Made by a program: the position numbers and the translations under genes
Shown here: positions 3,280-22,784 of the stretch, one piece after another
How positions within the stretch are numbered: position 1 is the stretch's first letter
How the letters are laid out: the number at the start of each line of letters is the position of its first letter
The notes under the pieces: model-generated
What the model was told of the DNA's origin: nothing
Database searches by the model: none
What the model saw: only the letters and a program-made list of their open reading frames with translations
Assembly: GCA_022711395.1 (NCBI GenBank)
Contig: JAKLFA010000002.1
Span: forward strand, 323,864-387,863
Origin: Candidatus Omnitrophota bacterium
GTDB lineage: Bacteria; Omnitrophota; Gorgyraeia; Zapsychrales; JANLHA01
Direction: 5' to 3'
DNA length: 64,000 bases

Positions 3280-3971
3280 GGTCTTCCCTCCCCGGCCGTG
3301 AGCATAAAATCAACCTGTTCCCCAAGGTCCACAAAGGATTGAAAGATCCCGTCCGCATCCTTTAAATATTTTTCCGGTAACGATGTCGTCAGTGCCAGGC
3401 ACCGCAGGCCACAGGACTTCGCGGATCGGATGCCGTAGGGCGCGTTCTCAATTACGACCGCCTCTGCCGCGCCCAAATTTAATTTTTCAAGCGCGAGTTG
3501 GAACGGCTGCGGATGGGGCTTCCCATATTGGACCTCGCTCCCGGTGACGGTGACGTCAAAAAGCGACAAAATGTCAGCAGGCAGAAGTTTTAAAAGCTCA
3601 TCCCTGGATGTTCCGGTGACAAGCCCGAGCTTGAAACCACGCTCATGCATGGCCCGTAAAAATTCAAAGGCCCCATCAATAAATCTCAATTGGACGATCT
3701 GCTTGAAAATGATCTCTTTTTGGGCCAAAAGTTCGGCGGCGCGTTTTTCATCATAGGGGCGGCCGTAATCCTGATAGATCTCCTTAAGGCCGCAGGCCCC
3801 TTTCCCCCCTTCACGCTTATAAACATCTTCCCTGGTGATCTGGAACCCATCTGATGCCAGAGCCCTGCGCCAGGCCTCAAAATGATCGGGCATTGTGTTG
3901 GTGATCACGCCATCCATGTCAAAAAGAATGGCCCGTGTTTGTAATTGGATTTTCTTTTCCATAACAGGCAT
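3276..3971 (-). CDS. HAD-superfamily hydrolase (beta-phosphoglucomutase-like subfamily IA)
   Basis: FDMDGVI motif I; the ...GLVTGTSR... and ...VVIENAPYGIRSAKSCG... motifs. Confidence 0.7.
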   Translation of the reverse strand: MPVMEKKIQLQTRAILFDMDGVITNTMPDHFEAWRRALASDGFQITREDVYKREGGKGACGLKEIYQDYGRPYDEKRAAELLAQKEIIFKQIVQLRFIDGAFEFLRAMHERGFKLGLVTGTSRDELLKLLPADILSLFDVTVTGSEVQYGKPHPQPFQLALEKLNLGAAEAVVIENAPYGIRSAKSCGLRCLALTTSLPEKYLKDADGIFQSFVDLGEQVDFMLTAGEGRP

Positions 3972-8163: not shown

Positions 8164-8193
8164 TTGCAAAGCGGGAACAACGGGTGCTATACT
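8164..8193 (+). promoter_or_regulatory. Sigma70-like promoter (TTGCAA-N18-TATACT) driving the riboswitch leader
   Basis: -35 TTGCAA at 8164-8169 and -10 TATACT at 8188-8193, about 10 nt upstream of the conserved RNA core. Confidence 0.4.
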
Positions 8194-8204
8194 TTAGATG
8201 ACAA

Positions 8205-8358
8205 TTTGAATAGTAAACTACTCGAAAGAGTAGGGCACAAAGCCGTGAGCCTAAGTCCTTTGCCATGTGAGGATATGGCTGTCTGGTTACCGTAACTCGA
8301 AATTTAAGTGAGTTCCGTTAATCGAAAAAGCCCTTCTCCTCTTTCAGAAGGGTTTTTT
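8205..8358 (+). promoter_or_regulatory. c-di-GMP-I (GEMM) riboswitch, copy A. The aptamer is about 8205-8322 and is followed by an intrinsic-terminator expression platform (stem 8331-8352, U-run 8353-8358).
   Basis: AAACUACUCGAAAGAGUAGGGCACAAAGCCGUGAGCCUA…CUGGUUACCGUAAC matches the GEMM-I consensus (AAACC..UCGAAAGA..GGGACGCAAAGCC…GGGGUUACCGAUGG): a GAAA-tetraloop P1 hairpin, the CAAAGC core and the GUUACCG 3' element. A second copy lies at 25.9 kb with compensatory stem changes. Confidence 0.65.
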
Positions 8359-8386
8359 CAATTAGGGGGCTCGGAAAGGGGCCAAA

Positions 8387-8629
8387 ATGATTAGAAAACT
8401 CTTTTTTCTGATCGTCCTTTTCAGCCTGGTCAACACATCGGCAGCGTTCTGTGAAACCTCGTCTTTCAAGGTCTCGGTGACGATCCCGCGGATCGTGGGG
8501 GTCAATTATTTCCCCCAGGACAGTGAGATCGCCTCCAGCCAGGGCAAGAAAGGCCAAGCGGATTTCACGGAACAGGTGATCTTCAGGAATGGACAGGAAG
8601 TCCTTCTGAAGACACATGTAGAAAAATAG
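8387..8629 (+). CDS. Small secreted protein (80 aa with a signal peptide) directly downstream of riboswitch A
   Basis: GGAAAGGGG RBS then ATG at 8387. N-terminal signal peptide MIRKLFFLIVLFSLVNTSAA. No recognisable domain. Confidence 0.55.
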   Translation: MIRKLFFLIVLFSLVNTSAAFCETSSFKVSVTIPRIVGVNYFPQDSEIASSQGKKGQADFTEQVIFRNGQEVLLKTHVEK

Positions 8630-8646: not shown

Positions 8647-8710
8647 AAACCCCGTTGCCGTTCAACTAGGAGGTTCCGAGTAACTCGTGGCGCGGGGTTT
8701 TCTATTTTTT
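8647..8710. terminator. Bidirectional intrinsic terminator between the convergent small ORF (+) and the large OMP gene (-)
   Basis: AAACCCCG…CGGGGTTT outer stem with an inner paired region. It is flanked by an A-run on one side and a T-run on the other, so it can terminate on both strands. Confidence 0.5.
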
Positions 8711-11700
8711 GATGGACACTGGGACGTGCAGCATATAGGTCGTCCCTTCGCTCACTTCAATCTTGTGTTCTAAAGCGATATTAGGCAAGTACTGCAAAGG
8801 GATCGAATTGATGTCGATCCTCAGGACATGTTTTCCATCCGCGATATTATTGAAAAAATACGCCCCTCTCATGTCGCTGGATGACGTCAACTCTCCATCG
8901 AGGACCACTCTAACGTTGGCAAGTTTTTCTTCATTGGCGTCCGGGACCTTGTTTCCATTGGTGTCCACAAAAACGATCCCGTAGATCCCGGAACGCGTTG
9001 CCAGCGCGATGTCATGGTCAATAACATCCTTATGCTTGATCTCGAACTCTTCCTGAGACTGGTCTTGAAAGACGTACCCATCCGGGACCGTGTCAAAATC
9101 CAGCCCGATAACGAGCGTGCGCGCCTTGATCTGTGTGTAATACCATCCCGCCTCATCTGTCACGGCGGAATCCTCTCCGATCAGGACCCGAACACCGGCA
9201 ACACCGGGTTCCCCATCATCCTTGCGGCCGTTGGAATTGACGTCCTTAAAGACATGTCCCTGCACCAGAGCGGACGGGTTCCAGGCAAAACCCAAATCCC
9301 AGGTTGAACGCATCCCGAAATTCAAGCTTGCTTCTGTGTATGACGTGTTATTCAGGTTCTCCGACCAAATGTCCCGCAACCGTCCATCCACATAAATATC
9401 AACATCCTGATTCGGCGAGAACGTCAACCCGCTGCTTGTGGTCAAACTGTCTTCCCCGGCCAAAAAGCTCTTTTCACTTTCAGTGCGCTGCTCATCCCGG
9501 TACGAAAGGCCGGCGTTCCAGCGCCACTGGTCATTGATGGCCCTGCGATAGCTTAACGCCGAATAGAACACCGACGGATAGACCGTATCTGAAGGATCGC
9601 CGCGGTCTTTGACATAATACTGTTCATAGCTGTTTGAAAAGCTCAAGTTGTTGGTCAGAGAATATTGCGACCCAACCGTAATGCTGTTGCGGTCATAATC
9701 CGACTGCATATTGGAATCCGAACGGCGCAACTGCGTTGTGCCGGTGACATACGTTGAAAGGCTTCGAGAGAAGACATTAAACAGCCTTGAATAAGTCGTG
9801 CTTAAACGGGTGTCTGTGTCATCCGACAGAAGCCCGGGGCTGTGGAAATAATAGAAGTCGCTTCTCCAGGATGAGCGGTCTTCAAAAGGAAGATAAACAT
9901 TGGCGTTAAAATCCGTGTTAACGGCATCGGGGTTTTCAGGGTTTTCGATCTGGTGGTCCCGGTAAAGGTCCAGGTAGGTGTTAAAATCAAAACGTTCAAA
10001 CGCCTTACGGTAAATAAATTCCGTTCCCACTTCGCCTTGCCCTGCGGGAGCCCCGCTCACGTTGGCGTAGCCAGAGGGAATATTACGGGCCCGGACCTCA
10101 AAGCTGGTCTCATCATCCATGATATAATTCATCCGGGCTTTTTGCGCCATCTCATCTTCATCATGAGCGAATTCCGTGAACAACGAAACGTTTTCGTTGA
10201 ACTTGTTCTCCGTTTCCACGGAAACCGTCCGGTCCTTGGCGAACCGGGATTTATCATCCCCCCAGGCCCTGGCGTAATTGATCCCCAGCCCGAAATCATC
10301 GCTGGGTTTATACTTCATCCGCAGGCCTTCGACGTAGGATTCGTTTTTAGATGATATCGTCGGTGAAGCCACTGTTCCGTAAGTCGATCGGGCCTGCCCG
10401 CGCAGGATGGTATAACTCACTTCATCATAATAGACTTTGTCCTGGAACAGAACACCGCGGATCTGGCGGCCCGGCAATGTCAGGTCGCTGAAATGGGTCG
10501 TCGAATCAAAAAGGCGCAGATGAAAATCATCGACCATGGCGATATTGCCATCTGAAAGCCCCATGGTATAGTAGGTCGCCTCCGTTGGATCAAGATCTGT
10601 TTTATGAAGTGTGACCGCCCCGTCCAGATTTCCGTAAGGAGTGGGCCCGTAAAGACCGAAATTGTTGACAAAATTCAAAGAATCCCGGTCAAGATTGTCC
10701 TTGCTGTCCCCGGAATAATTCGTGTACCAGCTGGTGTCATAGGTGAATTTGAAATGCTCCACGGAGCCTTGCCGCTTGGGAGCATACAGCTGTTCCTTTT
10801 CAATGGTCTTGACGGGAAGGACCATCTTCAGGGTGAACGTCCATCGTCGCCCGGAATCTTCCCAGATATGCAAAAAAGTCTGGCTGCGCATGACAGGCGA
10901 GATTTCAATTTCAGTGCGGCTTGACTGAGCGATATCGATCACTTCAGGCGCGGTGACCAGAAAACGGCTGATCCGGTCATAGGAGCGGATCACGAGTTTC
11001 GTGTCTAAAGGCAATTCGATCAATGTGTTGGGCTGTTGTCCCCAAAGATAATCGGTCAATTCGATCAGTTCAACAGGAAATGTCTTGTCCGCCATGGCTG
11101 GAGCACGCAAAGTCCCGTCATCATCCAAATCATCACTCCCGGAAATTTGTGCGCGAGTCCCCAATGATGTTTTTTCAACGGCCGATGGCCAATCCGGATC
11201 GCTCTCAGCAAGGGCCGCGGCAGGCGTTTTTTCAGGACGTTGCTTCACGGCATCACGGACGATCTCCTCAGATGGCGATGTTTGACCCGAGGTCTTCGAT
11301 AAATCCGGCGCTGTTAAAGACCTGACAGGCTTGCCGGCAACGGCAGGCTTTGATGTGACGCGTTCTGGCGAAATGTTTCTGTCAGGCAGAACCGGGGCCG
11401 TTTTCTCCTTGCGGTCGGAGATCGGTCCTTTTTCCTGAACCGGCAGATCCTCAATGCGGTTCTCGATCAAACGCTTTACAAGATTGATATAGTGGACGAG
11501 CTCCGGATCGCCGGGCTGCACACTTTGAGCGGTTTCAAAAAAAAGCAGGGCCCGCTGATAATCCCTTTTTTCAAGGGCCTCAAAAGCAAGCTCCCGATAA
11601 TTTTGATAGATCGTGGAGTATTGCGCAAAGGCAGGGCCCGGCATGGGTTCCGTAAAACTTAGCCCAAACCCTATCGTGGTCAAAACGAAAATATGGATGA

Positions 11701-11716
11701 GTTGTTGACGTCTCAT
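8702..11716 (-). CDS. 1004-aa outer-membrane protein: signal peptide, TPR-like N-domain, long Pro/Ser/Thr-rich linker, a small periplasmic domain, a large (about 550 aa) beta-barrel and two C-terminal SdrD-B/CarboxypepD_reg-like beta-sandwich domains. Candidate usher-like assembly platform.
   Basis: Signal peptide MRRQQLIHIFVLTTIGFGLSF…AFAQ; TPR-like …YQRALLFFETAQSVQPGDPELVHYINLVKRL…; alternating aromatic beta-strand pattern across about 550 aa; C-terminal repeats …VQGHVFKDVNSNGRKDDGEPGVAGVRV… and …IYGIVFVDTNGNKVPDANEEKLANVRVVL…. Confidence 0.45.
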   Translation of the reverse strand: MRRQQLIHIFVLTTIGFGLSFTEPMPGPAFAQYSTIYQNYRELAFEALEKRDYQRALLFFETAQSVQPGDPELVHYINLVKRLIENRIEDLPVQEKGPISDRKEKTAPVLPDRNISPERVTSKPAVAGKPVRSLTAPDLSKTSGQTSPSEEIVRDAVKQRPEKTPAAALAESDPDWPSAVEKTSLGTRAQISGSDDLDDDGTLRAPAMADKTFPVELIELTDYLWGQQPNTLIELPLDTKLVIRSYDRISRFLVTAPEVIDIAQSSRTEIEISPVMRSQTFLHIWEDSGRRWTFTLKMVLPVKTIEKEQLYAPKRQGSVEHFKFTYDTSWYTNYSGDSKDNLDRDSLNFVNNFGLYGPTPYGNLDGAVTLHKTDLDPTEATYYTMGLSDGNIAMVDDFHLRLFDSTTHFSDLTLPGRQIRGVLFQDKVYYDEVSYTILRGQARSTYGTVASPTISSKNESYVEGLRMKYKPSDDFGLGINYARAWGDDKSRFAKDRTVSVETENKFNENVSLFTEFAHDEDEMAQKARMNYIMDDETSFEVRARNIPSGYANVSGAPAGQGEVGTEFIYRKAFERFDFNTYLDLYRDHQIENPENPDAVNTDFNANVYLPFEDRSSWRSDFYYFHSPGLLSDDTDTRLSTTYSRLFNVFSRSLSTYVTGTTQLRRSDSNMQSDYDRNSITVGSQYSLTNNLSFSNSYEQYYVKDRGDPSDTVYPSVFYSALSYRRAINDQWRWNAGLSYRDEQRTESEKSFLAGEDSLTTSSGLTFSPNQDVDIYVDGRLRDIWSENLNNTSYTEASLNFGMRSTWDLGFAWNPSALVQGHVFKDVNSNGRKDDGEPGVAGVRVLIGEDSAVTDEAGWYYTQIKARTLVIGLDFDTVPDGYVFQDQSQEEFEIKHKDVIDHDIALATRSGIYGIVFVDTNGNKVPDANEEKLANVRVVLDGELTSSSDMRGAYFFNNIADGKHVLRIDINSIPLQYLPNIALEHKIEVSEGTTYMLHVPVSIKK

Positions 11717-11738
11717 GACATTCGTTTTTTAAGATCTG

Positions 11739-12578
11739 TTATTGCGTGGCGATCACCTTATAGCTCACGCCTGTTTTGCTGAATTCCACTTCCGTGACAG
11801 AAGACGCCCCATCCTCCAGGTCAAAGGTCAGGACCGTCAAATATCGCCCATCATCCGCGACCCCCGAAGAAAGCTTGATCTCAAATTGAGCATCACTGCC
11901 AGCAGGAAGATAGATCTTATCAGCCTCCCCTCGGTCAGCGGGCACCCCTGAGCCGGAATTCAAAATATAAAACAAGGGCGTGATCACGAGGGTGACGTTC
12001 CCCTGGTTCTTTACGGTCCCACGCATGGTCCCGCCTTCAATGTTGATATCCGAAACCGCGATCTTTTTGGTCCGGTCATTGGTCTCAACAAAGAACAGGG
12101 TCCCCACCCTCGACAGGACCGTAAGCCCCGCTTTACTGCCCTCCCCGACCGGCGTCAGACCGCCATCCAGGATCGTCTTCTCCATAAATAATACGCAATA
12201 GTATCCCCCGTCCGCGTCTGCCGGCATGTTGATCGTGTAATTGATCTTTTTCTGTGAAAATGGCGGAATATGCACGGTCTGCGGATAAAAATTGATCCAC
12301 TGGCTGCAGGAATCAGACACTGTCCCTGACGGAAAAAATTCTTTTTTACCTCTGAATGGCGGAATATAACGGAAGTCCTCAAAATAGACCGTCAGGTCGA
12401 TCGCTTCGTTGCCGGTATTGTGGACCGTCAAGGCATCGGCCGTTTTTTGGGCCGGCGCCAATGAGAGTTTGACCTTTCCCTGCTCAACCAGGACTTGGGC
12501 GTCCGCGAAAGGGATCATCACCCAGCAGTAAAACCACATGATAAGCAGGATTTTTTTAACGCTTTTCCGCATCGTCAT
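11739..12578 (-). CDS. Periplasmic protein, candidate PapD-like pilus chaperone (two Ig-like domains inferred)
   Basis: Signal peptide, and an N-terminal …QGKVKLSLAPAQKTADALTVHNTGNEAIDLTVYFEDF… that resembles the chaperone N-domain pattern. A …TPLFY… segment and operon context next to pilin-like and OMP genes also support it. The call is weak from sequence alone. Confidence 0.3.
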   Translation of the reverse strand: MTMRKSVKKILLIMWFYCWVMIPFADAQVLVEQGKVKLSLAPAQKTADALTVHNTGNEAIDLTVYFEDFRYIPPFRGKKEFFPSGTVSDSCSQWINFYPQTVHIPPFSQKKINYTINMPADADGGYYCVLFMEKTILDGGLTPVGEGSKAGLTVLSRVGTLFFVETNDRTKKIAVSDINIEGGTMRGTVKNQGNVTLVITPLFYILNSGSGVPADRGEADKIYLPAGSDAQFEIKLSSGVADDGRYLTVLTFDLEDGASSVTEVEFSKTGVSYKVIATQ

Positions 12579-12605
12579 CCCTCCCTCGATCCATTCTTAA
12601 AATAG

Positions 12606-12635
12606 CGGGCGCCCTTGAAGATCAAGAGCGCCCCC
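12606..12635 (-). terminator. GC-rich hairpin with a short T-tract between the pilin-like gene and the chaperone-like gene (candidate intra-operon attenuator)
   Basis: Minus-strand RNA GGGGGCGCUCUUGAUCUUCAAGGGCGCCCGCUAUUUU has a 6-bp GC stem followed by UAUUUU. Confidence 0.3.
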
Positions 12636-12658
12636 AAACGTTCTACAATCAACAGATG

Positions 12659-13273
12659 TTAATTGACAACAGCCGTGACCAACAGGATCCCGGAATAATC
12701 ACCAGGATTATCGGCCGGGCTGAACACTTCTTCGTCATCATCACCGGTGCTGTTATCCGGATCGCCGTTGAAAATGCCGACATAGAGTCTCGGCCATCCG
12801 CCCGTAAACTGGCTCTTATCCAAGGTGCCGATACCGGCGACTTTGCCCAAAAGGACTTTATTGATCACCGTATCGTTATCACCGTCGGTCTTAACAACCG
12901 TCAACGAACCCTTGACATCCAGGCCGCCTAAGGCTGTTCCCTGATTCGGGTTCGTGCCCGGCGTGTAGGAGAAGGAGATATCATCCGGTTGTCCGGCTCC
13001 GTCGCCTGTGGTGCCGATGTCGATAGCATAATAAAACGGTGAATAAAAGATCCCGTTGACGCTATCATAAAGCAGCTGCCCGAAGTTGAGGGCGTTGGTG
13101 GCCGGGGTCCAAGTGCTTCCCTGAACACGGCTGACAACGAACTGGATCGCGCTGGATTTCTGAATGTTGACATTGATCCCGAACGATCCCTGGTCTGCGA
13201 AACCCGCAGTTGCGCCCAGAAGCAGCACAGCCACTCCCAGAAGCATGATGAAACTGAACTTGATTGTTTTCAT
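12659..13273 (-). CDS. Small secreted protein (about 175 aa mature), candidate pilin-like subunit (SCPU / spore-coat-U-like)
   Basis: AGGAGG RBS before ATG at 13273 (MKTIKFSFIMLLGVAVLLLGATAGFA). Gly/Thr/Asp-rich, beta-type sequence with an …LNFGQL… motif. Sits immediately upstream of the chaperone-like gene. Confidence 0.35.
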   Translation of the reverse strand: MKTIKFSFIMLLGVAVLLLGATAGFADQGSFGINVNIQKSSAIQFVVSRVQGSTWTPATNALNFGQLLYDSVNGIFYSPFYYAIDIGTTGDGAGQPDDISFSYTPGTNPNQGTALGGLDVKGSLTVVKTDGDNDTVINKVLLGKVAGIGTLDKSQFTGGWPRLYVGIFNGDPDNSTGDDDEEVFSPADNPGDYSGILLVTAVVN

Positions 13274-13314
13274 ATGTTCCTCCTTTATTTTTTTATTTAT
13301 AAAAACGAGCTGGT

Positions 13315-14700
13315 TCACATTTCTCCAAGTGAATAGCGGACCTCGGTATAGTAATCCCCGGGTGCCATTTCCGCGTAAGGTCTCACTTGGTAGAAAACAC
13401 GAAACTTCGCCGGCGAACCTGTTTTGTCAGAAGTAAAAAGCACCTCGCCACGCTCTTTGACAGGTTCAAATTCCGGCGCCAAGACCCTCCCGGTTGATTC
13501 CTCCAACAGCTCGGTACTGACTAAAAAATACTGCGGATCCAGTCGCTGCCCGCGTTCATTGGCCAAAGGCGTCGTCAGCTCCTGGGTCACGGAATACGGC
13601 CTTCCAATGTTGGAATTGACCTTCACCACGACAGAAAAAGTCTGCGGCGGGCCGCCCGCGAACAGATTCTTGAACCGCATAGGCCCTTCAGGAAATCCCA
13701 GTTCGATCTCAAATTCCGGCTTGATGTAGACCGCCAGATCAAACAAGTATTCCTTTTCTCCCTGCGGGCCTGAAACAGCATACCTCAATTGTCCCAAATA
13801 TTCCCCCGCCTCCAATGAGGAAAAAAAGGACGGGTCCACGCCGTAGCGGAGCACGCATTGATCATCAGCCGTGTTTGCTGAGTAGATCAGCATGCGCCTG
13901 CGCTCCATCGCGGCCTTATTACTGTAAGGCAGCTCGGAACTCACGTTGCATTGAGAATCAAATGTCAAAGACTGCAATGGGATCTCTTTTCCATTGCTGT
14001 TATTAGTCGGAACACGCAAAAGTTCCTGATAAACTTTCAGTTCGCCCACATTCCCGTCATACGAAAGATCCACGCGATAAGCCGGCTCTGAACCGCGCTC
14101 ATTGGACAGCTCGATCTGATCACGCCCCCGCTCTCCTCTTATTTCCAAATTAAAATCCAGTTCCGCGTCCAGGATCACATCCAGATAAATATTCTGCTCA
14201 TTTCCACCGCCCGATACCGGCCGCACCGAAAACATAATTCGGCCATAATACTGCCCGGATTTCGTGATCCGGTCCCGGTCCACGATGTAGGCCAGGACAA
14301 ACCGGTCGCTCGATCCGTTTTCAGGGGACGTGTAGATCAATTGTTCCGAACGGCCTAGATATTCAGGCATTTGCGCGTAGAGCGCCCCGGATGAATTGGA
14401 CCCAGAGACAGAATAAAATTGGAGCACGTCACGGTTCTGCATTCCGCCCTGAGGTGATGTCAACGGATCGATCATCCGCTGAAAGACCTGGTATTGACTT
14501 CCCTCGCTTGAAGTCAGACGGATGCGCACTTCCTTCTGCCTGCCATCCAAAACGTCCTGCCGGCCGAACTGAAGTGAGGAACTTCCCTGGATCGTGGTGG
14601 CAGAGATCGACACCTCAGCGAGGGCCGCGGAAACATTCCCCAGGACCATCACGCCCAGCAAAAGCCCCAAATATGTCCCTGTCTTCTTAATCATGGTCAA
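13315..14700 (-). CDS. 461-aa secreted protein of unknown function, first gene of the fibre-like operon (candidate large subunit/adhesin)
   Basis: Signal peptide MTMIKKTGTYLGLLLGVMVLGNVSAALA. Beta-rich, with an …SLQFGRQD… motif resembling that of the 219-aa protein. No known domain recognised. Confidence 0.4.
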   Translation of the reverse strand: MTMIKKTGTYLGLLLGVMVLGNVSAALAEVSISATTIQGSSSLQFGRQDVLDGRQKEVRIRLTSSEGSQYQVFQRMIDPLTSPQGGMQNRDVLQFYSVSGSNSSGALYAQMPEYLGRSEQLIYTSPENGSSDRFVLAYIVDRDRITKSGQYYGRIMFSVRPVSGGGNEQNIYLDVILDAELDFNLEIRGERGRDQIELSNERGSEPAYRVDLSYDGNVGELKVYQELLRVPTNNSNGKEIPLQSLTFDSQCNVSSELPYSNKAAMERRRMLIYSANTADDQCVLRYGVDPSFFSSLEAGEYLGQLRYAVSGPQGEKEYLFDLAVYIKPEFEIELGFPEGPMRFKNLFAGGPPQTFSVVVKVNSNIGRPYSVTQELTTPLANERGQRLDPQYFLVSTELLEESTGRVLAPEFEPVKERGEVLFTSDKTGSPAKFRVFYQVRPYAEMAPGDYYTEVRYSLGEM

Positions 14701-14841: not shown

Positions 14842-16314
14842 TTAATTCAATGACCCTGAACCGCTTTGAGCAGGAATGTTATTACGCATCAAAATTTCTT
14901 TGGTAATATCTTGTATTTTATCCGTGGCGATAATGATCTTTTGGCCAAAATCCGTCTCAAAACGGATAAACTCACCGGTCTCATTTTCAAGCAAGGACAC
15001 AAAATCCGAAAATGATACAAACTCGTTCCCGTTTACGTTCTTAATGACTTCATGGTTCACATCAAAATATCCGACGCTCAGATCATCCGGCAAAATGTTC
15101 AATAAGACCACGATCTCTTTTTTGCGCGGATAATTCAGCCGCGCTTTTCCAAAGGCATAATCAAGATATCCCAAAGGGGCGGTCTCCCACCAATTTTTCC
15201 CCCAGGTCTGCAAAAGATCCATGCTTAAAACAGTAAAAACCAACCCGCCATAGATATAATACGGCGGCTTTGAATAACTGTTGGGCGGCGGGACCAGACC
15301 TTTAAAATCCGTGAACGTCACCGGCACTTTCAGGATATTCCCCTCCCGTAAGACCAAAAGCTCGGCGATCTCACCGATCTGTTTTTCAGTGACCAGATAG
15401 GAAAAGTCCAACCGTTCATTGCTCCGGAACTGGATCGTCGCGTCCGCTTCGATCTTGACGCCGTCGATCTCCATCAGGACGTCGCCTTCTTTCAAAACCT
15501 GATCCACCGGCGAGAACGGCAAGGCCCTGGAGATCACCACCCCTTCGTTCTTTTTGGGGATCCGGTAGAATTTCTGCAGGGCCGGGTTTTCGCTATTATC
15601 ATATTCGATCCCAAGAAAGGGAAAGCCGTCATACTCCCCGTCATCGACATCCTTTAAAAAATGGGTGATGACGTTGGTCGGGATCATAAAACCGATATTT
15701 TGACTGTTGGCGATCGCCTGCATGGCCACACCGACCAGCTTTCCATCCTGCACCACAGGCCCACCGCTGTTGCCCGGATTGATGGCCGCGTCGATCTGCA
15801 CGCCTAAAAGGCGCTTTCCGCTTTGAGCGTAGGGGATGATCTCAATGCGGGACACCACTCCTTTGGTAATGGAAAGCTTGTCCCCTCCCAAGGGAAATCC
15901 AATGACAAGGACCGAATCCTGAAGCTGAGGCAGACCTCCCAGGGATAACGGCTGCAAATCCGAAAAGAACTCCGGGTCATCCACGGTCAAAAGGGCAAGG
16001 TCGCAATCATGGCCGATCGCCAGAAGCCGTGCCGTGTATTTTTTGGGAGAAGACTGTTTGCGGACCTGAATAAAGGTATGATCAGCCACCACATGCGCGT
16101 TGGTCACAATACGGTTTCCCGCGATCACTCCCCCCGACCCTGTCGAAGCCTGGCTTCCCAGCGTTTGCCAGGGTTTTGAAAAATCCACCGGGTTTGCCGT
16201 GACAAAGACCTTGACCACCGCGTCCGAAATGTCCGCGGAAAAAGCCGTTTGATGCGGAGCAATAAAAAAACAGAGCGACCCGCACAGAATGACCAGCCGT
16301 AGTATTTTGCTCAT
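14842..16314 (-). CDS. Periplasmic serine endoprotease of the DegP/HtrA family (trypsin-like domain plus PDZ)
   Basis: Catalytic His context …GNRIVTNAHVV… and GNSGGPVV serine motif, followed by a PDZ-like C-terminus. Start is at MSKILRLVILC… (16314); the track ORF was over-extended. Confidence 0.8.
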   Translation of the reverse strand: MSKILRLVILCGSLCFFIAPHQTAFSADISDAVVKVFVTANPVDFSKPWQTLGSQASTGSGGVIAGNRIVTNAHVVADHTFIQVRKQSSPKKYTARLLAIGHDCDLALLTVDDPEFFSDLQPLSLGGLPQLQDSVLVIGFPLGGDKLSITKGVVSRIEIIPYAQSGKRLLGVQIDAAINPGNSGGPVVQDGKLVGVAMQAIANSQNIGFMIPTNVITHFLKDVDDGEYDGFPFLGIEYDNSENPALQKFYRIPKKNEGVVISRALPFSPVDQVLKEGDVLMEIDGVKIEADATIQFRSNERLDFSYLVTEKQIGEIAELLVLREGNILKVPVTFTDFKGLVPPPNSYSKPPYYIYGGLVFTVLSMDLLQTWGKNWWETAPLGYLDYAFGKARLNYPRKKEIVVLLNILPDDLSVGYFDVNHEVIKNVNGNEFVSFSDFVSLLENETGEFIRFETDFGQKIIIATDKIQDITKEILMRNNIPAQSGSGSLN

Positions 16315-16336
16315 GGTGTATCCTTTTGATTGTGTG

Positions 16337-17926
16337 TTAAAAAGAACCTCGGCCAGAAGAAAAACTTTCGGAAAGGTCATCTTTGATCTGCTGATAAACG
16401 GCTTCATCGGACAACCCATACATCCATTCCTGAGGGATCAATTCCGAGGTGCGGGCCATACCAGAAGGCTCGGATAAGGCCTCTCGCCCATCTCCCTGCC
16501 AGGTCACGGCCTTGCCATCCGGAACAGACGCGGATCCCATGATCTTACGAAGTTCCATTTCCCTCCGTTCCAAAAGAATGGTCAGGTCTTTGATTTTGAC
16601 CCTGTAATTATCGATCCGGTCATTCAGCTCGAGGATCGTGCGGTCCTTGAGCATAAAAACATCATTGATCCTCGCCAGGTCCAGGTCTCTCCCCTGAAGG
16701 GAACGACGTAACCGGGATATCTGAACCTCTTTCTTAAGATTATCAACCCGCAGCCAGATATTGGCCTTTGATAAACGGTCAAGCTGTTGCCCGATCTTGG
16801 CCATCTCCACCTGATTACCCAGGGCCACGTCCTGAATGCGGGCACGAAGACCCGAAACCTCATTTCTCAATTCTTCAAGCCCCCCGTTGGCCAGTCTGCC
16901 GCCATTGCTGCCTAAATCATGGACCTGTTTCTCAAGATCCAAGATCTGCGTATCTTTATCCGTAACGATCTTCTGCACCAGAAGCAGCCGCTCCTTGGTC
17001 TCGGCCAATTCCTGCTGTAAAGTCTGGATCTGGGACGTGCGGTCCGCCAGACGGCTTTCTCCTTCATAAAGGTTCAGTGACATATCCGCCAGTTCCTGGG
17101 TCAGACGCGTCACCTCACCGGAGGTCTGGGAAAGTTTCTGCTGCAGAACGTCCATTTCAAGCGCAACGGAATCAAATCGTCCGGAAAAAGCGTCCAGCTG
17201 TTTCTGCTGCTGGTCAATGACCGTGTTCTTGAGCGCCAACTCTCCTCGGATCTCGGTGATATCAAGGTCGACCGCCGCTTCTTTCCGCTGGGCTTCCAAG
17301 ACACGGACCCTGGCCTCAAGCTCGGATTTTTGCCGTCGAAGTTTTATGTCCCGCTCGCCATAAACATCCACATAGGCCAGGTAGGCCTTTTTGAGGTTCG
17401 AAAGGATCTCATAAACGGACATCTTTTTAGATGAGCTGTCCTGCATCCCCCCAAAGACCGTTGGAAGAACGATCGATTTAAGCTCGATCAAGCGTTCCGA
17501 CCCCTCGTTCAGCAATTCAACATCGGGTTCCGCGCTCACCTGAAGATAGCGTTCCCGGGCCTGGGATGCCTGTTCTTCGATCATGCGCGCGCTGGATTCA
17601 TAAAATTCAAGCCTCGTCCTTAAAAATTCCAGATATCCCAAAATGTCCATGCAGCGCCTGCCTTCATCGGCCGCCTGCTCAGCGATCTTTTCGATGCTGG
17701 CGCTAAGCTGATCAAACGCCGCGCGGTCAAGAGGATCGCGCGACAGAACTCCAGCGTATGACATCGCCGCATCCGCATAATTTTTTTCAGCAAAGAGCTT
17801 CTCAGCGTATTCACGCTGCCAGGTCATCGTCCTTTCGCCGGCTTGAGCACAGGCCGGCGAACCCCCAGCGAAGACCGCTATGGTGAAAAAAACAAGAAGA
17901 ACCATCCGTTGAATAGACATGATCAT
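16337..17926 (-). CDS. Secreted/periplasmic coiled-coil protein with an N-terminal TPR-like segment (529 aa)
   Basis: Signal peptide (…VFAGGSPACAQA) and a long heptad-rich region rich in Q/E/L/R. No enzymatic motif. Confidence 0.55.
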   Translation of the reverse strand: MIMSIQRMVLLVFFTIAVFAGGSPACAQAGERTMTWQREYAEKLFAEKNYADAAMSYAGVLSRDPLDRAAFDQLSASIEKIAEQAADEGRRCMDILGYLEFLRTRLEFYESSARMIEEQASQARERYLQVSAEPDVELLNEGSERLIELKSIVLPTVFGGMQDSSSKKMSVYEILSNLKKAYLAYVDVYGERDIKLRRQKSELEARVRVLEAQRKEAAVDLDITEIRGELALKNTVIDQQQKQLDAFSGRFDSVALEMDVLQQKLSQTSGEVTRLTQELADMSLNLYEGESRLADRTSQIQTLQQELAETKERLLLVQKIVTDKDTQILDLEKQVHDLGSNGGRLANGGLEELRNEVSGLRARIQDVALGNQVEMAKIGQQLDRLSKANIWLRVDNLKKEVQISRLRRSLQGRDLDLARINDVFMLKDRTILELNDRIDNYRVKIKDLTILLERREMELRKIMGSASVPDGKAVTWQGDGREALSEPSGMARTSELIPQEWMYGLSDEAVYQQIKDDLSESFSSGRGSF

Positions 17927-18753
17927 GAATTATTCGGAGTTATCGAAATCGAAACAGTTTTTGAAATAACGTCGGGCTCAGCGCTCCCCGAGTCCCACTC
18001 CACCATCACCACAACCGGAACATCGGACTGATATTCCGCTTTTTCCGGCACCCGGATCTCATAACGGCCCACGATCTGGTCATCCGTAAAAAGATGATCG
18101 AACGCCAGGACGTGGATCTTGACCGGAAGTTTCGTGATATTTTTCAGGTCCACCCGGACAAAGACCTTTTCCCCAGGATGAAATGCCTGATGCTGCAGCG
18201 GATACTGGATATTAAAATCCCCCACACCAGAACCGCCCGCGGCGGCATCCGCTGCCGGATCCGCTATGGCAGTCAACGCGCGGTCCTTGATCAGATCACG
18301 CCCAAAATTGACCGAGAACGCTTCTGATGAGCCGCCAAAAGGGGCCTCAAAAGAAAGCTCAAATTTCTCCGCGGCATTGACCGGAAGCTCAAAAACCAGC
18401 GAAATTTTTTTCCCCTCCCCAGGATACAGGGTGAAGGCTGAAAGCTCCTCTTTGCTCAGGAGCCGATAGATGTTCTGGTATTCATCCTTGATCTTAGCGG
18501 CTGGGACGCTCAAAACATCGATCTTCCGGTATTCTGAAGAATTCAAAAGCTGCAGTTCCACGCGGAGCGCCCGGCTGATCTCAGGCGCCTGAGGGACAGA
18601 GACCTCTTCGATCGCCGCCTTTTGAAAGGAAACATGGACGGCATCCGAAGATGCTTGCAAACGGCTGTTTAGCCTGACCTCTGCCATCGCGGTAGCGGCC
18701 AACCCCAAACAGGCCGAACAGAATATGATCAAATAAAAGAAAAAGGCTTTCAT
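17923..18753 (-). CDS. Secreted protein of unknown function (about 275 aa)
   Basis: Signal peptide MKAFFFYLIIFCSACLGLAATAMA. Start overlaps the downstream gene by 4 nt. Confidence 0.45.
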   Translation of the reverse strand: MKAFFFYLIIFCSACLGLAATAMAEVRLNSRLQASSDAVHVSFQKAAIEEVSVPQAPEISRALRVELQLLNSSEYRKIDVLSVPAAKIKDEYQNIYRLLSKEELSAFTLYPGEGKKISLVFELPVNAAEKFELSFEAPFGGSSEAFSVNFGRDLIKDRALTAIADPAADAAAGGSGVGDFNIQYPLQHQAFHPGEKVFVRVDLKNITKLPVKIHVLAFDHLFTDDQIVGRYEIRVPEKAEYQSDVPVVVMVEWDSGSAEPDVISKTVSISITPNNS

Positions 18754-18825
18754 GTTGGGGCTATTATAGCATAAATGCCCAGGCAAAAAATCGGAAAATC
18801 GCATAAAATTAGTTCGTCGAGGAAA

Positions 18826-19200
18826 TCAGATGTTTTGGTCGATCGCTTGAATAAGCTCTTCGACCGTGCAGGGCTTGGCAAGGAAAGGATAACCTGAAAT
18901 GAACCCGTCTTCCTGATTGACTTCGGATTTCCGCACCGTCGCGGTCAAAAAAATGATCGGGATCTGAGCTGTTTGTTCGTTTTCCCGAAGCTGACAAAGC
19001 ACGTCCGGACCTTCCATCTCCGGCATGATAATATCCAACAGGATCAGTTCCGGCCGGTATCCCAAAGCCGTCTCAAACGCCCGGGTCGAATCATTTTCGA
19101 TCCGCACAAGAAAACGGCCGGTATCCTCAAGGTTCAGCTTCACCATTTCGGTGAAACCAACCTCATCATCCACGATCAATATGCGTTTTGGTTCTGTCAT
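18826..19200 (-). CDS. Single-domain response regulator (CheY-like receiver)
   Basis: …ILIVDDE…LILLDIIMPEMEG…FLAKP… is the canonical D-D-T/K receiver pattern. It overlaps the upstream kinase gene by 4 nt (ATGA). Confidence 0.85.
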   Translation of the reverse strand: MTEPKRILIVDDEVGFTEMVKLNLEDTGRFLVRIENDSTRAFETALGYRPELILLDIIMPEMEGPDVLCQLRENEQTAQIPIIFLTATVRKSEVNQEDGFISGYPFLAKPCTVEELIQAIDQNI

Positions 19201-20393
19201 TTCCCGTTGACCTTAAAGACCAGCCTGGCGCGAGCGCCCTGCTTGTCTTCCTTATTGGCCAGATCGATCATCCCGCCATGCGAATCCATGATCGTCCGGG
19301 CGATCGACAATCCCAGCCCGACGCCTCCCGCGGCCCGGTGTGTGGTAAAGAAGGGATCGAATATTTTTTCAAGATATTCATCCGGGATGCCTTTTCCTGT
19401 GTCCTCAAAATCCACGATCAGGACATCTTCCCCGACCGCGATCGAATCCGTCAGATTGGATGCCACCGAAATGTCGGACCGGTCAAAGATCTTGCGCGTG
19501 GTGCGGATCGTGAGCGTGCCTCCGTTTTTCATCACCGCGATCGCGTTGAGGATCAGATCAACGACAACTTGCTCGATACGGTTCTTGTCGATCAAGACAT
19601 TCGGAAGGTTGGTGGCAAAATGTTTGACGATCTTGATCTGGAATTTTTCGCACTGATGATGCGTGAGGACCAGCCCCTGCTCGATCGTTCGCTCGATCGG
19701 GCAGAGGTCTCTCTTGATATCTGAAAGGCTGGCAAAATCCAAAAGGTCTTTGATAATGCTGTTGGCCTTATACGCCGCGTCCTTGATGGAACGCAGGGTC
19801 AGCTCGATCTTGTCATCCCCGTCTTTAAGGACCGTGTTGAGATATTCCACCCCGTAAAGGATCGTTGCCAGGGGATTTTTGACCTCATGAGCGATCCCGC
19901 TCGCGACGCCACCGACCACGTTCATTTTTTCCGCGCGGATCAGCTGGGCCTGCATTTCTTTCAGCTCATCCATGGCCTTGTGCAGTTCAGTCTCCGCCTT
20001 CTTTCGTTCGATCGCGTAATAAAGCGCCTTGACCAGCCCATAGGACTTATACATCCCCTTGATCAAATAATCCTGGGCGCCCATCGTCACCGCCCTCAGG
20101 CCAAGATCGTCCTGGTACTCACCCGTATTGACGACAACCGCCAGTTGCGGATAGCGGCCATGAAGGCGCTTTAACGTATCAATCCCGTTACTGTCCTTGA
20201 TATTCAGGTCAAGAAGAACAACATCCACCAGGCTTTGCTTTAGAAGTTCGAATGTTTCCTGCAGGGAATCCGTGGCGCTGATCTGAAACGAACCATATGG
20301 AGCTTTGGAGAGCATGTTGATAAGGACCGCCCGATCGACATCATTGTTCTCGACGATCAAGACTTGAAGGGTCCGCTTCAGCTCAGTATCCAT
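19197..20393 (-). CDS. Hybrid sensor histidine kinase with an N-terminal receiver domain followed by HisKA and HATPase_c domains
   Basis: Receiver (…VLIVENNDVDR…VVLLDLNIKDSNG…); H-box …GIAHEVKNPL…; N/G boxes (…DTGKGIPDEYLEKIFDPFFTT…GGVGLGLSIAR…). Confidence 0.85.
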   Translation of the reverse strand: MDTELKRTLQVLIVENNDVDRAVLINMLSKAPYGSFQISATDSLQETFELLKQSLVDVVLLDLNIKDSNGIDTLKRLHGRYPQLAVVVNTGEYQDDLGLRAVTMGAQDYLIKGMYKSYGLVKALYYAIERKKAETELHKAMDELKEMQAQLIRAEKMNVVGGVASGIAHEVKNPLATILYGVEYLNTVLKDGDDKIELTLRSIKDAAYKANSIIKDLLDFASLSDIKRDLCPIERTIEQGLVLTHHQCEKFQIKIVKHFATNLPNVLIDKNRIEQVVVDLILNAIAVMKNGGTLTIRTTRKIFDRSDISVASNLTDSIAVGEDVLIVDFEDTGKGIPDEYLEKIFDPFFTTHRAAGGVGLGLSIARTIMDSHGGMIDLANKEDKQGARARLVFKVNGK

Positions 20394-20457: not shown

Positions 20458-20862
20458 TTAGAAATTCTCCCCTTCCCCGATGAAAAACAATTCTTGAAAG
20501 AACGCGTAATTTTCATGGACAGCCCTGATGCTGGGGCCCAGACGCAGCGCTTTCAGGGCCAGCGGATAAGCATTATTTTTAAGAAATTCAATGTCATATC
20601 TCTGCGCCCCCACATACGCGTCATGGCGGTAGCAATAGCTCATGCCCAGGTATCCCAGGGGCGAATAAGGAAATTTCTTGATCAAGGAAAGAAAGACCTC
20701 CTGAGTTGCCGTGCTGGCCCTGACATTGCGCGCTGTTGAGTTGAGCTGTTCGATCCCCCTCTCATAGAGTTCGATCGGATGCGGAGACATCAGGCAGGAT
20801 CCTGAAGGGATCAAAATGAGAGAAAATACGCAAAATAATATGAAAGAAAGAGTGTATTTGTT
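20458..20862 (-). CDS. Small secreted protein, unknown function
   Basis: Signal peptide MNKYTLSFILFCVFSLILIPSGSC. Confidence 0.4.
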   Translation of the reverse strand, partial: NKYTLSFILFCVFSLILIPSGSCLMSPHPIELYERGIEQLNSTARNVRASTATQEVFLSLIKKFPYSPLGYLGMSYCYRHDAYVGAQRYDIEFLKNNAYPLALKALRLGPSIRAVHENYAFFQELFFIGEGENF

Positions 20863-20929
20863 CATTTTTCGCACTATTCCTACGAAAAAGTATATCACAT
20901 GATAAGAGAAATTAACCACTTACGGAAGG

Positions 20930-21415
20930 TTATACTTTCGAACTGCTCACAAGGCGGAAATAGTCTTTGATGCGCTGGTCTCTTAAATACCGCACGGATG
21001 GGACCGTTAAGGTCAAATAGAGAAGGATCATTCTTAGAAATGGGCCCGGATGGAACAGCATGATCTCAATGGCAGGGCTTTGATACATAAAATACCGCGC
21101 TCGAACGACCTTGTAGACCGTGTTCAAGATCAAAAAAAACGCGGTAGGAAAGATCAGATAAACCGTTGCCAATCGCGCCCACTCTCTGGAAAGGTATAAG
21201 GACACCCCCGCGAAATACAGCAAGACCGGAATAAAACCATACAGAAAAAATCCGATGAACCCCCGCCAGGAATTGATCGAAAGAAGCCCCAGCCCACCGA
21301 CATTAATGGCATCCAGGACCTCGAACAGGATCAAAAGTGAACCAAAACCGCCCAAGCAGATCATTAAGGACGAGATGATGGTAACCCCCAGGGGCCGCTG
21401 CAGTTTAATCACCAT
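20930..21415 (-). CDS. Integral membrane protein (4-5 TM helices), unknown function
   Basis: Hydrophobic helices throughout. Confidence 0.45.
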   Translation of the reverse strand: MVIKLQRPLGVTIISSLMICLGGFGSLLILFEVLDAINVGGLGLLSINSWRGFIGFFLYGFIPVLLYFAGVSLYLSREWARLATVYLIFPTAFFLILNTVYKVVRARYFMYQSPAIEIMLFHPGPFLRMILLYLTLTVPSVRYLRDQRIKDYFRLVSSSKV

Positions 21416-21420
21416 AGTCG

Positions 21421-21969
21421 TTACTTTGCGAGGGTCGCTTTCCCTTTTTCATCGATCAGGATCTCCGTGATGATACGGCCTTCACGATCGAACTTCCGTT
21501 TGCGCCTTAAAAGGCCGTCTTTATACTCCAGTTGATAAAGCAGATGTCCATCGTCGTCAAACTGATCATAAACACCCTCCATCTCCGTAAAACGCACCGC
21601 CCGTTTGGAAGAACCTTCCGTGATGGTCTCTCCCTGCCCGTCCTGGCCCGTAAACGCTTTCTGATCATATTCTTTTTGCGCGATATCAAGTTCCCGCTGC
21701 CGAAAGATCATCTGTCGGGCCTGGAACAAGATCAATAAACCTGCCAGGCATCCGCCGCAAATGATCAGCGAGAAGCGCAGCGCGCGGCTGGCCCGCTGTT
21801 CCCTCGCCTTCAAGGCGTCATAGATGTGGATGACCAGGGCCTCTTCACTGATCCTTCCCGCGGAATAGATCTTGTCCAGGCGCATCCCAAGCGAGCTTGC
21901 CAGAAGTTCCAATTCCCGCAACCGGACCTTTTTATCAGGAAGATTCAGGATAAGGTCTAATTTTCTCAC
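21421..21969 (-). CDS. Membrane-anchored protein, unknown function
   Basis: Single central TM helix (…FSLIICGGCLAGLLILF…). Overlaps the start of the next gene. Confidence 0.4.
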   Translation of the reverse strand: MRKLDLILNLPDKKVRLRELELLASSLGMRLDKIYSAGRISEEALVIHIYDALKAREQRASRALRFSLIICGGCLAGLLILFQARQMIFRQRELDIAQKEYDQKAFTGQDGQGETITEGSSKRAVRFTEMEGVYDQFDDDGHLLYQLEYKDGLLRRKRKFDREGRIITEILIDEKGKATLAK

Positions 21970-22784
21970 ACGCGCTCCTGGGCCTTAAAATGATTTTTGC
22001 ACAGATCGATAAAGGCCTGGTCGACCCAGCGGCCCATGTAGGATGTTCCGCCCGCCTTTAAAAAGGCCGCCGCGTCCTCCTCGATCTTCAGGACCTGCCT
22101 GCGGCTCAGCGGATCATCCAACTGCCCGGTCTGATAATAGGAAAAACCGATCACCGGCTTCGACGAGAACCCATGGACATGCCGGAGGACCTCCATGAAC
22201 TCGGAAACCGGTTTGTCCAGCTGCACATCCGTGAACACAATATCAGGCGCTTCTTCGATGACCGAGGCCACGGCCTGAGAAACAGAGGTGGACAGGCGCG
22301 TCTTAAAGCCCTGCTCCTGCGCCAGAGCCGCCATCTGATGGAGCTGGACATGATAATCGGACCGTCCGACCAGAAGGACCTTGGAAACAGAACGGACAAA
22401 AACGGGCCGGTCAACCGTTTTGGCGCCGGCGAGAGCGCCTTCAATAGCGTCTAAAAGTTCTTGGGGAGTGAACGGTTTTGTGATAAATCGATCGACCCCG
22501 ACCGCGCCGAACGAATCTTTCATCTGGCCGCGCCCGGAGATGACGATCACCGGGATCGGACTGGTCTCATAGGCGCGCCTGATCTCCTTAAAGAGGGAAA
22601 ACCCGTCCATCTGCGGCATCAGCACATCGGTCAGGATAAGGTCTGGCGAATGTTCAGAAAGGATGTCCAGCGCGGCTTTTCCGTTCTCCGCGCAGGAAAC
22701 GCGGTATCCCCGCTTCTCCAGGATCGAACGGGTCGAACTCAGGATATCCGGATCATCGTCAACGATCAAAATATGTTTGCTCAT
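21966..22784 (-). CDS. Response regulator with an N-terminal receiver plus a second, receiver-like (likely degenerate) domain and no DNA-binding domain
   Basis: …ILIVDDDPDIL…PDLILTDVLMPQMDGF…IPVIVIS…FITKPF… is a receiver. It is a paralogue of the 24683-25486 gene. Confidence 0.75.
   Translation of the reverse strand: MSKHILIVDDDPDILSSTRSILEKRGYRVSCAENGKAALDILSEHSPDLILTDVLMPQMDGFSLFKEIRRAYETSPIPVIVISGRGQMKDSFGAVGVDRFITKPFTPQELLDAIEGALAGAKTVDRPVFVRSVSKVLLVGRSDYHVQLHQMAALAQEQGFKTRLSTSVSQAVASVIEEAPDIVFTDVQLDKPVSEFMEVLRHVHGFSSKPVIGFSYYQTGQLDDPLSRRQVLKIEEDAAAFLKAGGTSYMGRWVDQAFIDLCKNHFKAQERV

Follow-up and report, generated by a model that had tools for sequence, protein, structure and literature searches.

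A probable c-di-GMP-I class riboswitch upstream of an undescribed family of small secreted proteins in Omnitrophota

The 64,000-nucleotide (nt) stretch of contig JAKLFA010000002.1 analysed here, from a Candidatus Omnitrophota bacterium, is referred to below as the window. At 8164-8629 it contains a promoter, a structured leader and a gene for a secreted protein of 80 residues, which converges on a minus-strand cluster of genes for outer-membrane-like and secreted proteins. At curated thresholds, the complete set of 4227 Rfam families gave two matches in total across the whole window, both to RF01051, the model for c-di-GMP-I (cyclic di-GMP) riboswitches: one in this leader, at 8202-8294(+), and one, called copy 2 below, at 25878-25977(-). 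The match in the leader spans the full model (positions 1-87 of 87) and scores 67.6 bits (E 4.5e-11), nearly twice the gathering score of 35. A first-pass annotation had proposed that the gene of a small secreted protein is preceded by a c-di-GMP-I (GEMM) riboswitch whose platform is a terminator, and had named a covariance-model search with RF01051 as the check; that search has now been run, and the proposal is borne out by the score, by compensatory changes and by conservation of the leader. The region is very probably the 5' leader of a monocistronic mRNA that carries a GEMM-I (c-di-GMP-I class) riboswitch. Nucleotides are compared below with those of Vc2, the Vibrio cholerae type member of RF01051, and related loci are designated by numbers such as L003. 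The leader and its gene are composed of the following features.

8164-8193, plus strand: sigma-70-like promoter TTGCAA-18-TGcTATACT, from a promoter scan (9/12 matches, with TG); the -35 TTGCAA (8164-8169) is separated by an 18-nt spacer from the extended -10 TGCTATACT (8185-8193)
8202-8294, plus strand: GEMM-I (c-di-GMP-I) aptamer, matched by RF01051, with compensatory changes in relatives
8212, plus strand: specificity nucleotide, an A, equivalent to Vc2 G20 (model position 11), from the Rfam alignment, column 11 of the aptamer alignment
G8213-C8238 and U8214-A8237, plus strand: P1a pairs, read from sequence and alignment
8218-8233, plus strand: P1b, a hairpin CUACUC-GAAA-GAGUAG capped by a GNRA tetraloop and supported in relatives by compensatory AU/GC and CG/UA changes
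8233-8244, plus strand: aptamer core GGGCACAAAGCC, by direct reading
8239, plus strand: equivalent of the intercalating adenine A47, the first A after the P1a pair at C8238, from the Rfam alignment
AGCC / GGUU, plus strand: base helix of P2, by direct reading
8250-8278, plus strand: upper part of P2, where the variable hairpin P2b lies between the two halves of the 11-nt tetraloop receptor, CCUAAG (8250-8255) and UAUGG (8274-8278)
8283-8292, plus strand: aptamer 3' strand CUGGUUACCG, by direct reading
8290, plus strand: ligand-pairing C, equivalent to Vc2 C92 (model position 83), the same base in 13/13 aptamers
8223-8237, plus strand: candidate antiterminator strand, made up of the loop and 3' arm of P1b with the GGGC junction; its complement is 8330-8345, in the 5' arm and loop of the terminator
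8285-8323, plus strand: hairpin H1, pairing the aptamer 3' strand and tail GGUUACCGUAACUCG (8285-8299) with conserved element E, UGAGUUCCGUUAAUC (8309-8323)
8331-8358, plus strand: intrinsic terminator CCCUUCU/AGAAGGG, a stem of 7 base pairs (bp) with 4 G-C pairs, an 8-nt loop and U6
8361-8383, plus strand: post-terminator segment, by direct reading, to which only a putative function is assigned
8387-8629, plus strand: gene for the 80-residue secreted protein, an open reading frame (ORF) with a signal peptide predicted from sequence

By all sequence and structure criteria checked except the nucleotide at the G20 position, the RNA at 8202-8294 is a member of the c-di-GMP-I class. It is predicted to form the standard three-helix junction, with the GAAA tetraloop docking into the CCUAAG/UAUGG receptor. 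On the strength of established knowledge we take CCUAAG/UAUGG to be the canonical 11-nt GAAA-tetraloop receptor, and the intercalating role of A8239 is likewise assumed from established Vc2 structures. The first-pass annotation had placed the tetraloop-receptor label elsewhere, on GGUUACCG, which is really the 3' strand of the P2 base helix together with the ligand-pairing C at 8290. Across 13 related aptamers, seven of the 20 predicted pairs stay paired through two-sided changes, and RF01051-type aptamers at related loci, orthologous and paralogous, score between 56 and 72 bits. The ligand-contact nucleotides equivalent to A47 (8239), which in Vc2 contacts the ligand (PMC5888326), and C92 (8290) are intact, and the G20 equivalent is A (8212); aptamers with A20 still belong to the GEMM-I fold and bind cyclic dinucleotides (PMC6140456).

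When one genome per species was scanned for the exact pattern, aptamers of this type turned up in four Omnitrophota contigs, which come from three metagenome-assembled genomes (MAGs), and in a single MAG with the label Planctomycetales; five further contigs came from a scan of metagenomes. The identical 80-residue protein is also encoded on DAOTBU010000094.1 (assembly GCA_035452745.1). The closest orthologous locus, L003, has the same synteny and a small protein of 66% identity. Sequence identity between the window and L003 is 96.8% in the aptamer, 93.5% in the platform, 75% in the coding sequence and 73% in the upstream DNA, and the coding sequences differ by 0.89 synonymous substitutions per site (dS), with a nonsynonymous to synonymous ratio (dN/dS) of 0.25. 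Because of these identities and this ratio the gene is judged to be real and under purifying selection, and the whole leader, platform included, to be much more strongly constrained than the protein.

The protein had been described at first as an orphan with a signal peptide and no known domain. As to domains this holds: Pfam and NCBIfam have no family for it, the sole Pfam line being a sub-threshold match to G5 (13.8 bits against a cut-off of 23). The signal peptide, recognised from sequence, would end at about SAA, before an F, and is followed by the predicted mature N-terminal motif SFKVSVTIPRIVGVN and a putative C-terminal beta-hairpin, RNGQEVLLKTHVEK. The label of orphan does not hold. 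A word search seeded with this protein alone yielded two relatives only, and the ORFs behind related leaders share a pattern that consists of a signal peptide, the motif S[FY]x[VI]S[VA]T[IL]Px[IV]xG[VL]N, a variable linker of about 25 residues and a C-terminal RxGxxxxLxTxVxK. A word search with the family profile yielded 18 clusters, and an exhaustive hidden Markov model search of 1.84 billion representatives yielded 407 with E <= 1e-3, including 79 with E <= 1e-10. Nearly all of the 407 are 71-106 residues long and are matched over their full length, and the protein belongs to an unnamed family of 407 cluster representatives. Searches of Pfam, NCBIfam and PDB sequences found no relative of this family above threshold, and AlphaFold2, run on the family alignment, modelled the C-terminal hairpin alone, at a low confidence (predicted local distance difference test 70, predicted template modelling score 0.23) that would not carry a fold search.

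The family travels with the switch. Wherever a distinct locus retains upstream DNA (13/13), a GEMM-I-clan aptamer lies upstream of the family gene; 12 of these aptamers were found at the Rfam threshold and one, in L018, by eye. The L018 aptamer (3770-3930), upstream of family member P0020, has an insertion of about 70 nt between the P1b 3' arm GGGUAGGGC and the AACAAAGCC core, owing to which it goes unreported at the Rfam gathering threshold; its sequence is otherwise as in the other leaders, and the terminator is present. The distant family loci L019, L022/L023 and L024 score best with RF03167 (c-di-GMP-I-GGC) or RF03168 (c-di-GMP-I-UAU). These matches were considered as altered binding sites and rejected as such, the alignments showing the canonical G, A and C and not GGC or UAU; the leaders are ordinary c-di-GMP-type sites in a shorter scaffold, and the window copy matches RF01051 itself. 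At three of these loci (L019 462-737, L022 3271-3504 and L024 3278-3496) an extra gene of 72-91 codons lies between riboswitch and family gene, and the leader there controls a two-gene operon. The leader of L016 (3917-4002) is without a U-tract terminator and has a CCCUC-containing segment that can pair with the Shine-Dalgarno sequence GGAGGGG immediately upstream of the ATG, which suggests that terminator and Shine-Dalgarno-sequestering hairpin are interchangeable platforms in this leader family.

The identity of the ligand hinges on position 20. Of the two guanines of c-di-GMP, one has its Hoogsteen edge read by G20 of Vc2 and the second pairs with C92, and riboswitches for cyclic GMP-AMP (cGAMP) have A at position 20 (PMC6140456, PMC5888326). 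The specificity conferred by this nucleotide is not absolute. Both ligands are bound by Vc2 G20A and by several natural aptamers with A20 (PMC6140456), and replacing the equivalent nucleotide of Cd1 from Clostridioides difficile, G11, by A or C does not greatly alter binding (PMC9262584). Among 13 related leaders, position 20 is G in ten, A in two and C in one: the A occurs in the window copy and in L010, the C in the closest orthologue, L003, and the G in the other ten, copy 2 included. The A-to-C difference is one of only three substitutions between the aptamers of the window and L003, and suggests either relaxed constraint at position 20 or an ongoing change of specificity.

The aptamer very probably binds a 3'3' cyclic dinucleotide, and we consider it rather probable that this is c-di-GMP, the most likely ligand, because ten of the 13 related leaders carry the canonical G. 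On this comparison c-di-GMP would probably be the ancestral signal of the regulon and probably still is. Because of the A at 8212, the window copy may bind 3'3'-cGAMP too, as a bispecific aptamer; that its ligand is cGAMP, or that it recognises both, is a clearly lesser possibility, and some other ligand is improbable. Two points count against this reading. Position 20 differs (A versus C) between two otherwise 97%-identical aptamers, and the 64-kb window contains no credible GGDEF, EAL, HD-GYP or PilZ motif by a crude regular-expression search, which says little about the whole genome. The first-pass annotation had held that c-di-GMP and cGAMP could not be told apart from sequence; the specificity position can in fact be read, and comparison leans towards c-di-GMP, while cGAMP stays a candidate as that annotation had it.

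A more specific proposal is that this is a GEMM-Ib riboswitch selective for 3'3'-cGAMP, and that the lineage has moved its small-protein gene from the c-di-GMP to the cGAMP regulon. With its A at 8212 the leader carries the G20-to-A change by which cGAMP riboswitches are defined, L010, a more distant leader of the same gene family, has A as well, and since copy 2 in the same genome keeps G, one cell could tell two ligands apart. However, A20 by itself makes an aptamer bispecific and not selective, as in Vc2 G20A and some natural A20 aptamers (PMC6140456), and A at this position is not conserved across the orthologous leaders (C in the otherwise 97%-identical aptamer of L003, G in 10/13) as it would be in a stable cGAMP class. 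No cGAMP synthase is known for the organism, and none was seen in the 64-kb window by the crude regular-expression search; GEMM-Ib riboswitches in the literature searched are mainly from Geobacter, with one bispecific aptamer from Clostridium beijerinckii. We regard selectivity for cGAMP as unlikely.

It could also be supposed that with the loss of G20 the aptamer came to sense nothing at all, leaving the terminator to attenuate at a fixed level or, in the main, to halt antisense transcription from the convergent cluster. The ligand-contact position is indeed mutated, and differently in two close relatives (A versus C), the hairpin is terminator-like on the minus strand too, and a strong antiterminator was not found for the window copy. 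But an aptamer identity of 96.8% at a dS of 0.89 speaks for strong purifying selection on the entire aptamer and platform, the remaining binding-site and tertiary-contact nucleotides are all intact, and mutants at the G20 position still bind ligand in both Vc2 and Cd1. Loss of sensing is very improbable on this evidence.

Transcription probably starts at about 8200, as judged from sequence, because the extended -10 box recurs 6-7 nt before the conserved leader start GACAAUUUG: the TGnTATACT box is found at that distance in L003, L013, L015, L017 and L006. This promoter, whose -35 begins at 8164, accounts for the start coordinate given in the first-pass annotation. Downstream, every element that it had listed (the terminator CCCUUCU/AGAAGGG with U6, a ribosome-binding site and the ORF of 80 codons) is present in the sequence, the ribosome-binding site being GGAAAGGGG, followed by the ATG at 8387. 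The terminator stem can be extended by the A-tract at 8324-8330, and the terminator tail alone folds at -15.3 kcal/mol with this A/U extension included. The terminator scan listed the hairpin only in its minus-strand reading, 8352-8331. Eight other related leaders have an equivalent terminator.

Between aptamer and terminator lies element E, also written GAGUUCCGUUAAUC (8309-8323), the recurring relay-element motif of which is GUUCCGUUAA. Its GUUCCGU core recurs, slightly varied, in terminator-type leaders. H1, the hairpin that it forms with the aptamer 3' strand, is seen in unconstrained minimum free energy (MFE) folds, where it competes with P2 and opens the base of that helix. Covariation for H1 is thin, both strands being nearly invariant; by direct reading, the changes that fit it are a C-G pair that becomes U-A in L006 and a U x C mismatch that becomes U-A in L018. 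Beyond the terminator, segment F (AUUAGGGGGCUC, 8361-8372) is complementary to E, and GGCUC/GGGCC (8368-8383) makes a small hairpin around the Shine-Dalgarno sequence, for which L003 has GGCUC/GAGCC, a change from U.G to U-A. Two further resemblances in the leader were set aside. An 8-mer, GUAACUCG, common to the leader and the 3' untranslated region is a coincidence and is not kept in L003, and CUUUC in the terminator loop, entertained as a conserved partner of the GAAA loop region, occurs in seven of nine leaders, being absent from L013 and L015, and more plausibly reflects mimicry of the aptamer 5' tail by the 3' arm of the terminator.

Nine distinct terminator-type leaders were compared for folding. 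The terminator forms in all nine, whether the MFE fold is left free or constrained to keep the aptamer pairs, and this coexistence rules out an ON design of the kind found upstream of pilM in Geobacter, in which terminator and aptamer are mutually exclusive; because the two folds are compatible, the situation matches that in Cd1. If transcripts are cut before the terminator 3' arm, purine-rich segments of the aptamer become the pairing partners of the pyrimidine-rich 5' arm. Its partner is the aptamer 5' tail, including position 20, with P1a in L013 (-11.4 kcal/mol), L011 (-10.4), L009, L006, L007 and copy 2, and the P1b 3' arm with the GGGC junction in the window copy and L015. Compared with shuffled arms, the antiterminator is significant in L013 (p 0.005), L011 (p 0.01) and L003 (p 0.04). 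In the window copy the best upstream duplex for the terminator 5' arm joins 8223-8237 to 8330-8345 at -16.3 kcal/mol, a value matched by 1% of shuffles. Fisher's combined p over the nine leaders is 0.006, or 0.017 without L003.

These folds suggest the following course of events. With a start near 8200 at the conserved extended -10 promoter, the aptamer (8202-8294) would be the first RNA made, and its occupancy by ligand would set whether RNA polymerase halts at 8331-8358, ahead of the 80-residue protein's gene (8387-8629). In the absence of ligand, E (8309-8323) would draw the aptamer 3' strand into H1, freeing the purine-rich segments of the aptamer (the 5' tail, or the P1b 3' arm and the GGGC junction), which could then hold the pyrimidine-rich terminator 5' arm and allow read-through. 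With ligand bound, these segments would stay locked in the aptamer and the terminator would form. The leader would thus act as an OFF switch, to which we give an even chance.

Several considerations weigh against this polarity. The net gain of the antiterminator in the window copy is just -0.5 kcal/mol (p 0.47 against shuffles), so that an antiterminator is weakly supported there, and the combined p is optimistic since the nine leaders share descent. The polarity assigned to the window copy would depend for the most part on two relatives and on one ON design having been excluded, and the OFF model leaves E, a strongly conserved element, merely a helper role. c-di-GMP usually turns adhesin and pilus genes ON, which fits an OFF switch poorly if the protein is a structural subunit.

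The opposite polarity can be formulated without recourse to the pilM design. Ligand would hold the aptamer 3' strand, freeing E to pair with segment F and so to extend the terminator hairpin to a stem of about 26 bp; the Shine-Dalgarno sequence would be released from the GGCUC/GGGCC hairpin, and translation or read-through would rise with c-di-GMP, as for an adhesion factor. This model gives E, the most conserved element of the platform, a direct relay role. The complementarity of E to F (7 bp, 5 bp and an A/U tract) is found both in L003 and in the window, an analogous helix, GGCAAUA/UAUUGCC, surrounds the terminator of copy 2 and is formed in the MFE, the Shine-Dalgarno hairpin shows the U.G to U-A change in L003, and known c-di-GMP riboswitches before pilin and adhesin genes are mostly ON switches. 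F is made after the U-tract, however, and cannot act on the choice between termination and read-through; in none of the nine leaders is E notably complementary to either arm of the terminator, and by direct reading E in L009 would pair with the Shine-Dalgarno sequence itself, which is the opposite logic. Moreover, the Shine-Dalgarno hairpin has just 5 bp, and a seemingly constitutive terminator is left unexplained. An ON switch appears distinctly less probable than the OFF switch, and a leader with no ligand-dependent switching, or with another mode of it, would be less probable again.

In its overall plan the leader agrees with Vc2: both have the three-helix junction, a P1b GAAA tetraloop whose 11-nt receptor lies in P2, a core of the GCACAAAGCC type that holds the intercalating A, and GGUUACCG as the 3' strand that contains the ligand-pairing C. 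It differs from Vc2 in having A and not G at position 20 and no convincing P1 between the 5' and 3' tails; further, Vc2 is described as a translational switch (PMC9262584), whereas the platform here is an intrinsic terminator, in a leader from the phylum Omnitrophota. In platform logic the leader resembles Cd1, a transcriptional OFF c-di-GMP-I riboswitch before the flagellar operon of C. difficile. Common to both are a terminator compatible with the aptamer fold, a third, aptamer-disrupting fold, putative in the leader studied here, that competes with the two, the lack of a stable P1, and, in Cd1, a G20 equivalent that tolerates A or C (PMC9262584). In Cd1, however, the antiterminator pairs the aptamer 3' strand (C87/G86) with downstream sequence, whereas here the 3' strand pairs with E, a separate element outside the terminator, and the proposed antiterminator uses 5'-side segments of the aptamer and is weak in the window copy; the regulated genes are unrelated. 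In its A20 nucleotide the leader resembles GEMM-Ib of Geobacter (Gs1761 (pgcA) and pilM), which likewise combines A at the G20 position with a terminator platform upstream of genes for extracellular or surface structures (PMC6140456, PMC6456294, PMC9262584). The pilM riboswitch differs in that it is an ON switch whose terminator uses the aptamer 3' strand, so that the folds exclude each other where here they coexist in 9/9 leaders, and the A is not conserved among the leaders related to ours (10 G, 2 A, 1 C).

Beyond the leader and its gene, four further features of the window are as follows.

8647-8700, two-way: terminator hairpin CCCCG...CGGGG between the convergent genes, flanked by A and T runs, -22.4 kcal/mol
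8702-14700, minus strand: convergent partner cluster, coding for a 1004-residue outer-membrane-like protein with SdrD_B repeats and then for proteins of 279, 219 and 461 residues
25878-25977, minus strand: copy 2, the second RF01051 aptamer, 67.0 bits, with the canonical G at position 20; absent from the first-pass annotation
25535-25792, minus strand: gene for an 85-residue secreted protein behind copy 2, followed by a receiver-domain gene at 24683-25486

Copy 2 has a leader of the same plan, with a GUUCCGUUAA element and a terminator GCCCUCUGA/UCGGAGGGC plus U6. Its GGCAAUA/UAUUGCC helix flanks this terminator and forms in the MFE. The 85-residue protein was compared with the 80-residue family and homology was rejected (hhalign probability 3%); it has one 56%-identical relative, and L011 has a similar ORF behind a similar leader. 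In a metagenome contig that carries copy 2 (L012, 1876-2090), about 55 nt of the aptamer is directly duplicated internally (CACAAAGCCGTGAGCCTACCCCCAGCG... twice), which is probably an assembly artefact or else a real tandem duplication in a strain.

The 1004-residue gene is the last of its minus-strand cluster and converges on the gene of the 80-residue protein across the two-way terminator, whose equivalent in L003 folds at -23.1 kcal/mol. In the 1004-residue protein a weakly TPR-like N-terminus is followed by a large middle part rich in beta structure and, at the C-terminus, by SdrD_B / CarboxypepD_reg-like repeats, the SdrD_B match scoring 43.3 bits against a cut-off of 29.7. The proteins of 279, 219 and 461 residues are secreted, and the first is weakly fn3_5 / WxLIP-like. 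Apart from SdrD_B, none of the four cluster proteins matches anything above the Pfam, NCBIfam or PDB thresholds. Wherever a locus extends far enough downstream, a gene for a protein of 740-1004 residues lies convergent to the small gene, at most loci with SdrD_B / T2SS-T3SS_pil_N matches; where the contig extends, proteins of about 265 and 205 residues follow. Convergent orthologues of the 1004-residue protein are found in L003, L009 (38% identity), L010 (35%), L016, L018, L021, L024, L025 and the P0008 contigs, and L017 and L022/L023 have a large convergent gene without a domain call. The regulated protein, of a family with this genetic tie to the convergent outer-membrane-like cluster, is probably a subunit or modulator of a surface structure. 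In layout the four-gene cluster resembles a pilus or fibre assembly cluster, and chaperone, usher and secretin families are undetectable in it.

The RNA class is a textbook one and a further copy of it is ordinary; what is new is the undescribed family of the regulated protein, which travels with the switch and with an uncharacterised outer-membrane gene cluster. In the literature searched, riboswitches in Omnitrophota are not described beyond passing mentions. The locus provides a functional lead on unannotated small secreted proteins (407 cluster representatives) and on a gene cluster without known families, in a phylum without a cultured model. Lying behind a c-di-GMP-type sensor wherever checked, these genes point to a lifestyle, adhesion or envelope regulon. 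The natural series of G, A and C at the specificity nucleotide of near-identical aptamers is material for testing how much that nucleotide weighs in recognition of c-di-GMP versus cGAMP, and the role of the conserved relay element GUUCCGUUAA is not fully explained by the current ON and OFF models.

As a tentative extension, and one that we think more likely to fail than to hold, the riboswitch may mark an unrecognised, cyclic-dinucleotide-controlled surface apparatus of Omnitrophota. The apparatus would consist of the secreted peptides, about 55 residues long when mature, with an N-terminal SFxVSVTIPxIxGVN strand and a C-terminal beta-hairpin, and of the convergent SdrD_B cluster with its three family-less proteins. 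The peptide would act as a strand-donating subunit, a cap or an inhibitor, and its dosage, set by the riboswitch, would decide whether the structure is built, possibly for attachment to surfaces or host cells. If so, a specificity nucleotide changed from G to A or C in the lineage of the window would mean that the operon may answer to a different cyclic dinucleotide than copy 2.

Further genes lie upstream of the cluster on the same strand, at 14842-20393 (minus strand). They encode an HtrA/DegP-like serine protease (525 residues), a long coiled-coil protein (529 residues), a secreted protein of 293 residues, a single-domain response regulator and a hybrid histidine kinase, and these genes and those at 20458-25792 all run in one direction, as a single long array with its start at the second riboswitch. 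In L021, an Omnitrophota-like contig, a fluoride riboswitch (RF01734, 51.2 bits) lies at 2181-2244 on the minus strand, upstream of crcB and adjoining the small-protein locus; crcB is likewise found nearby in L017.

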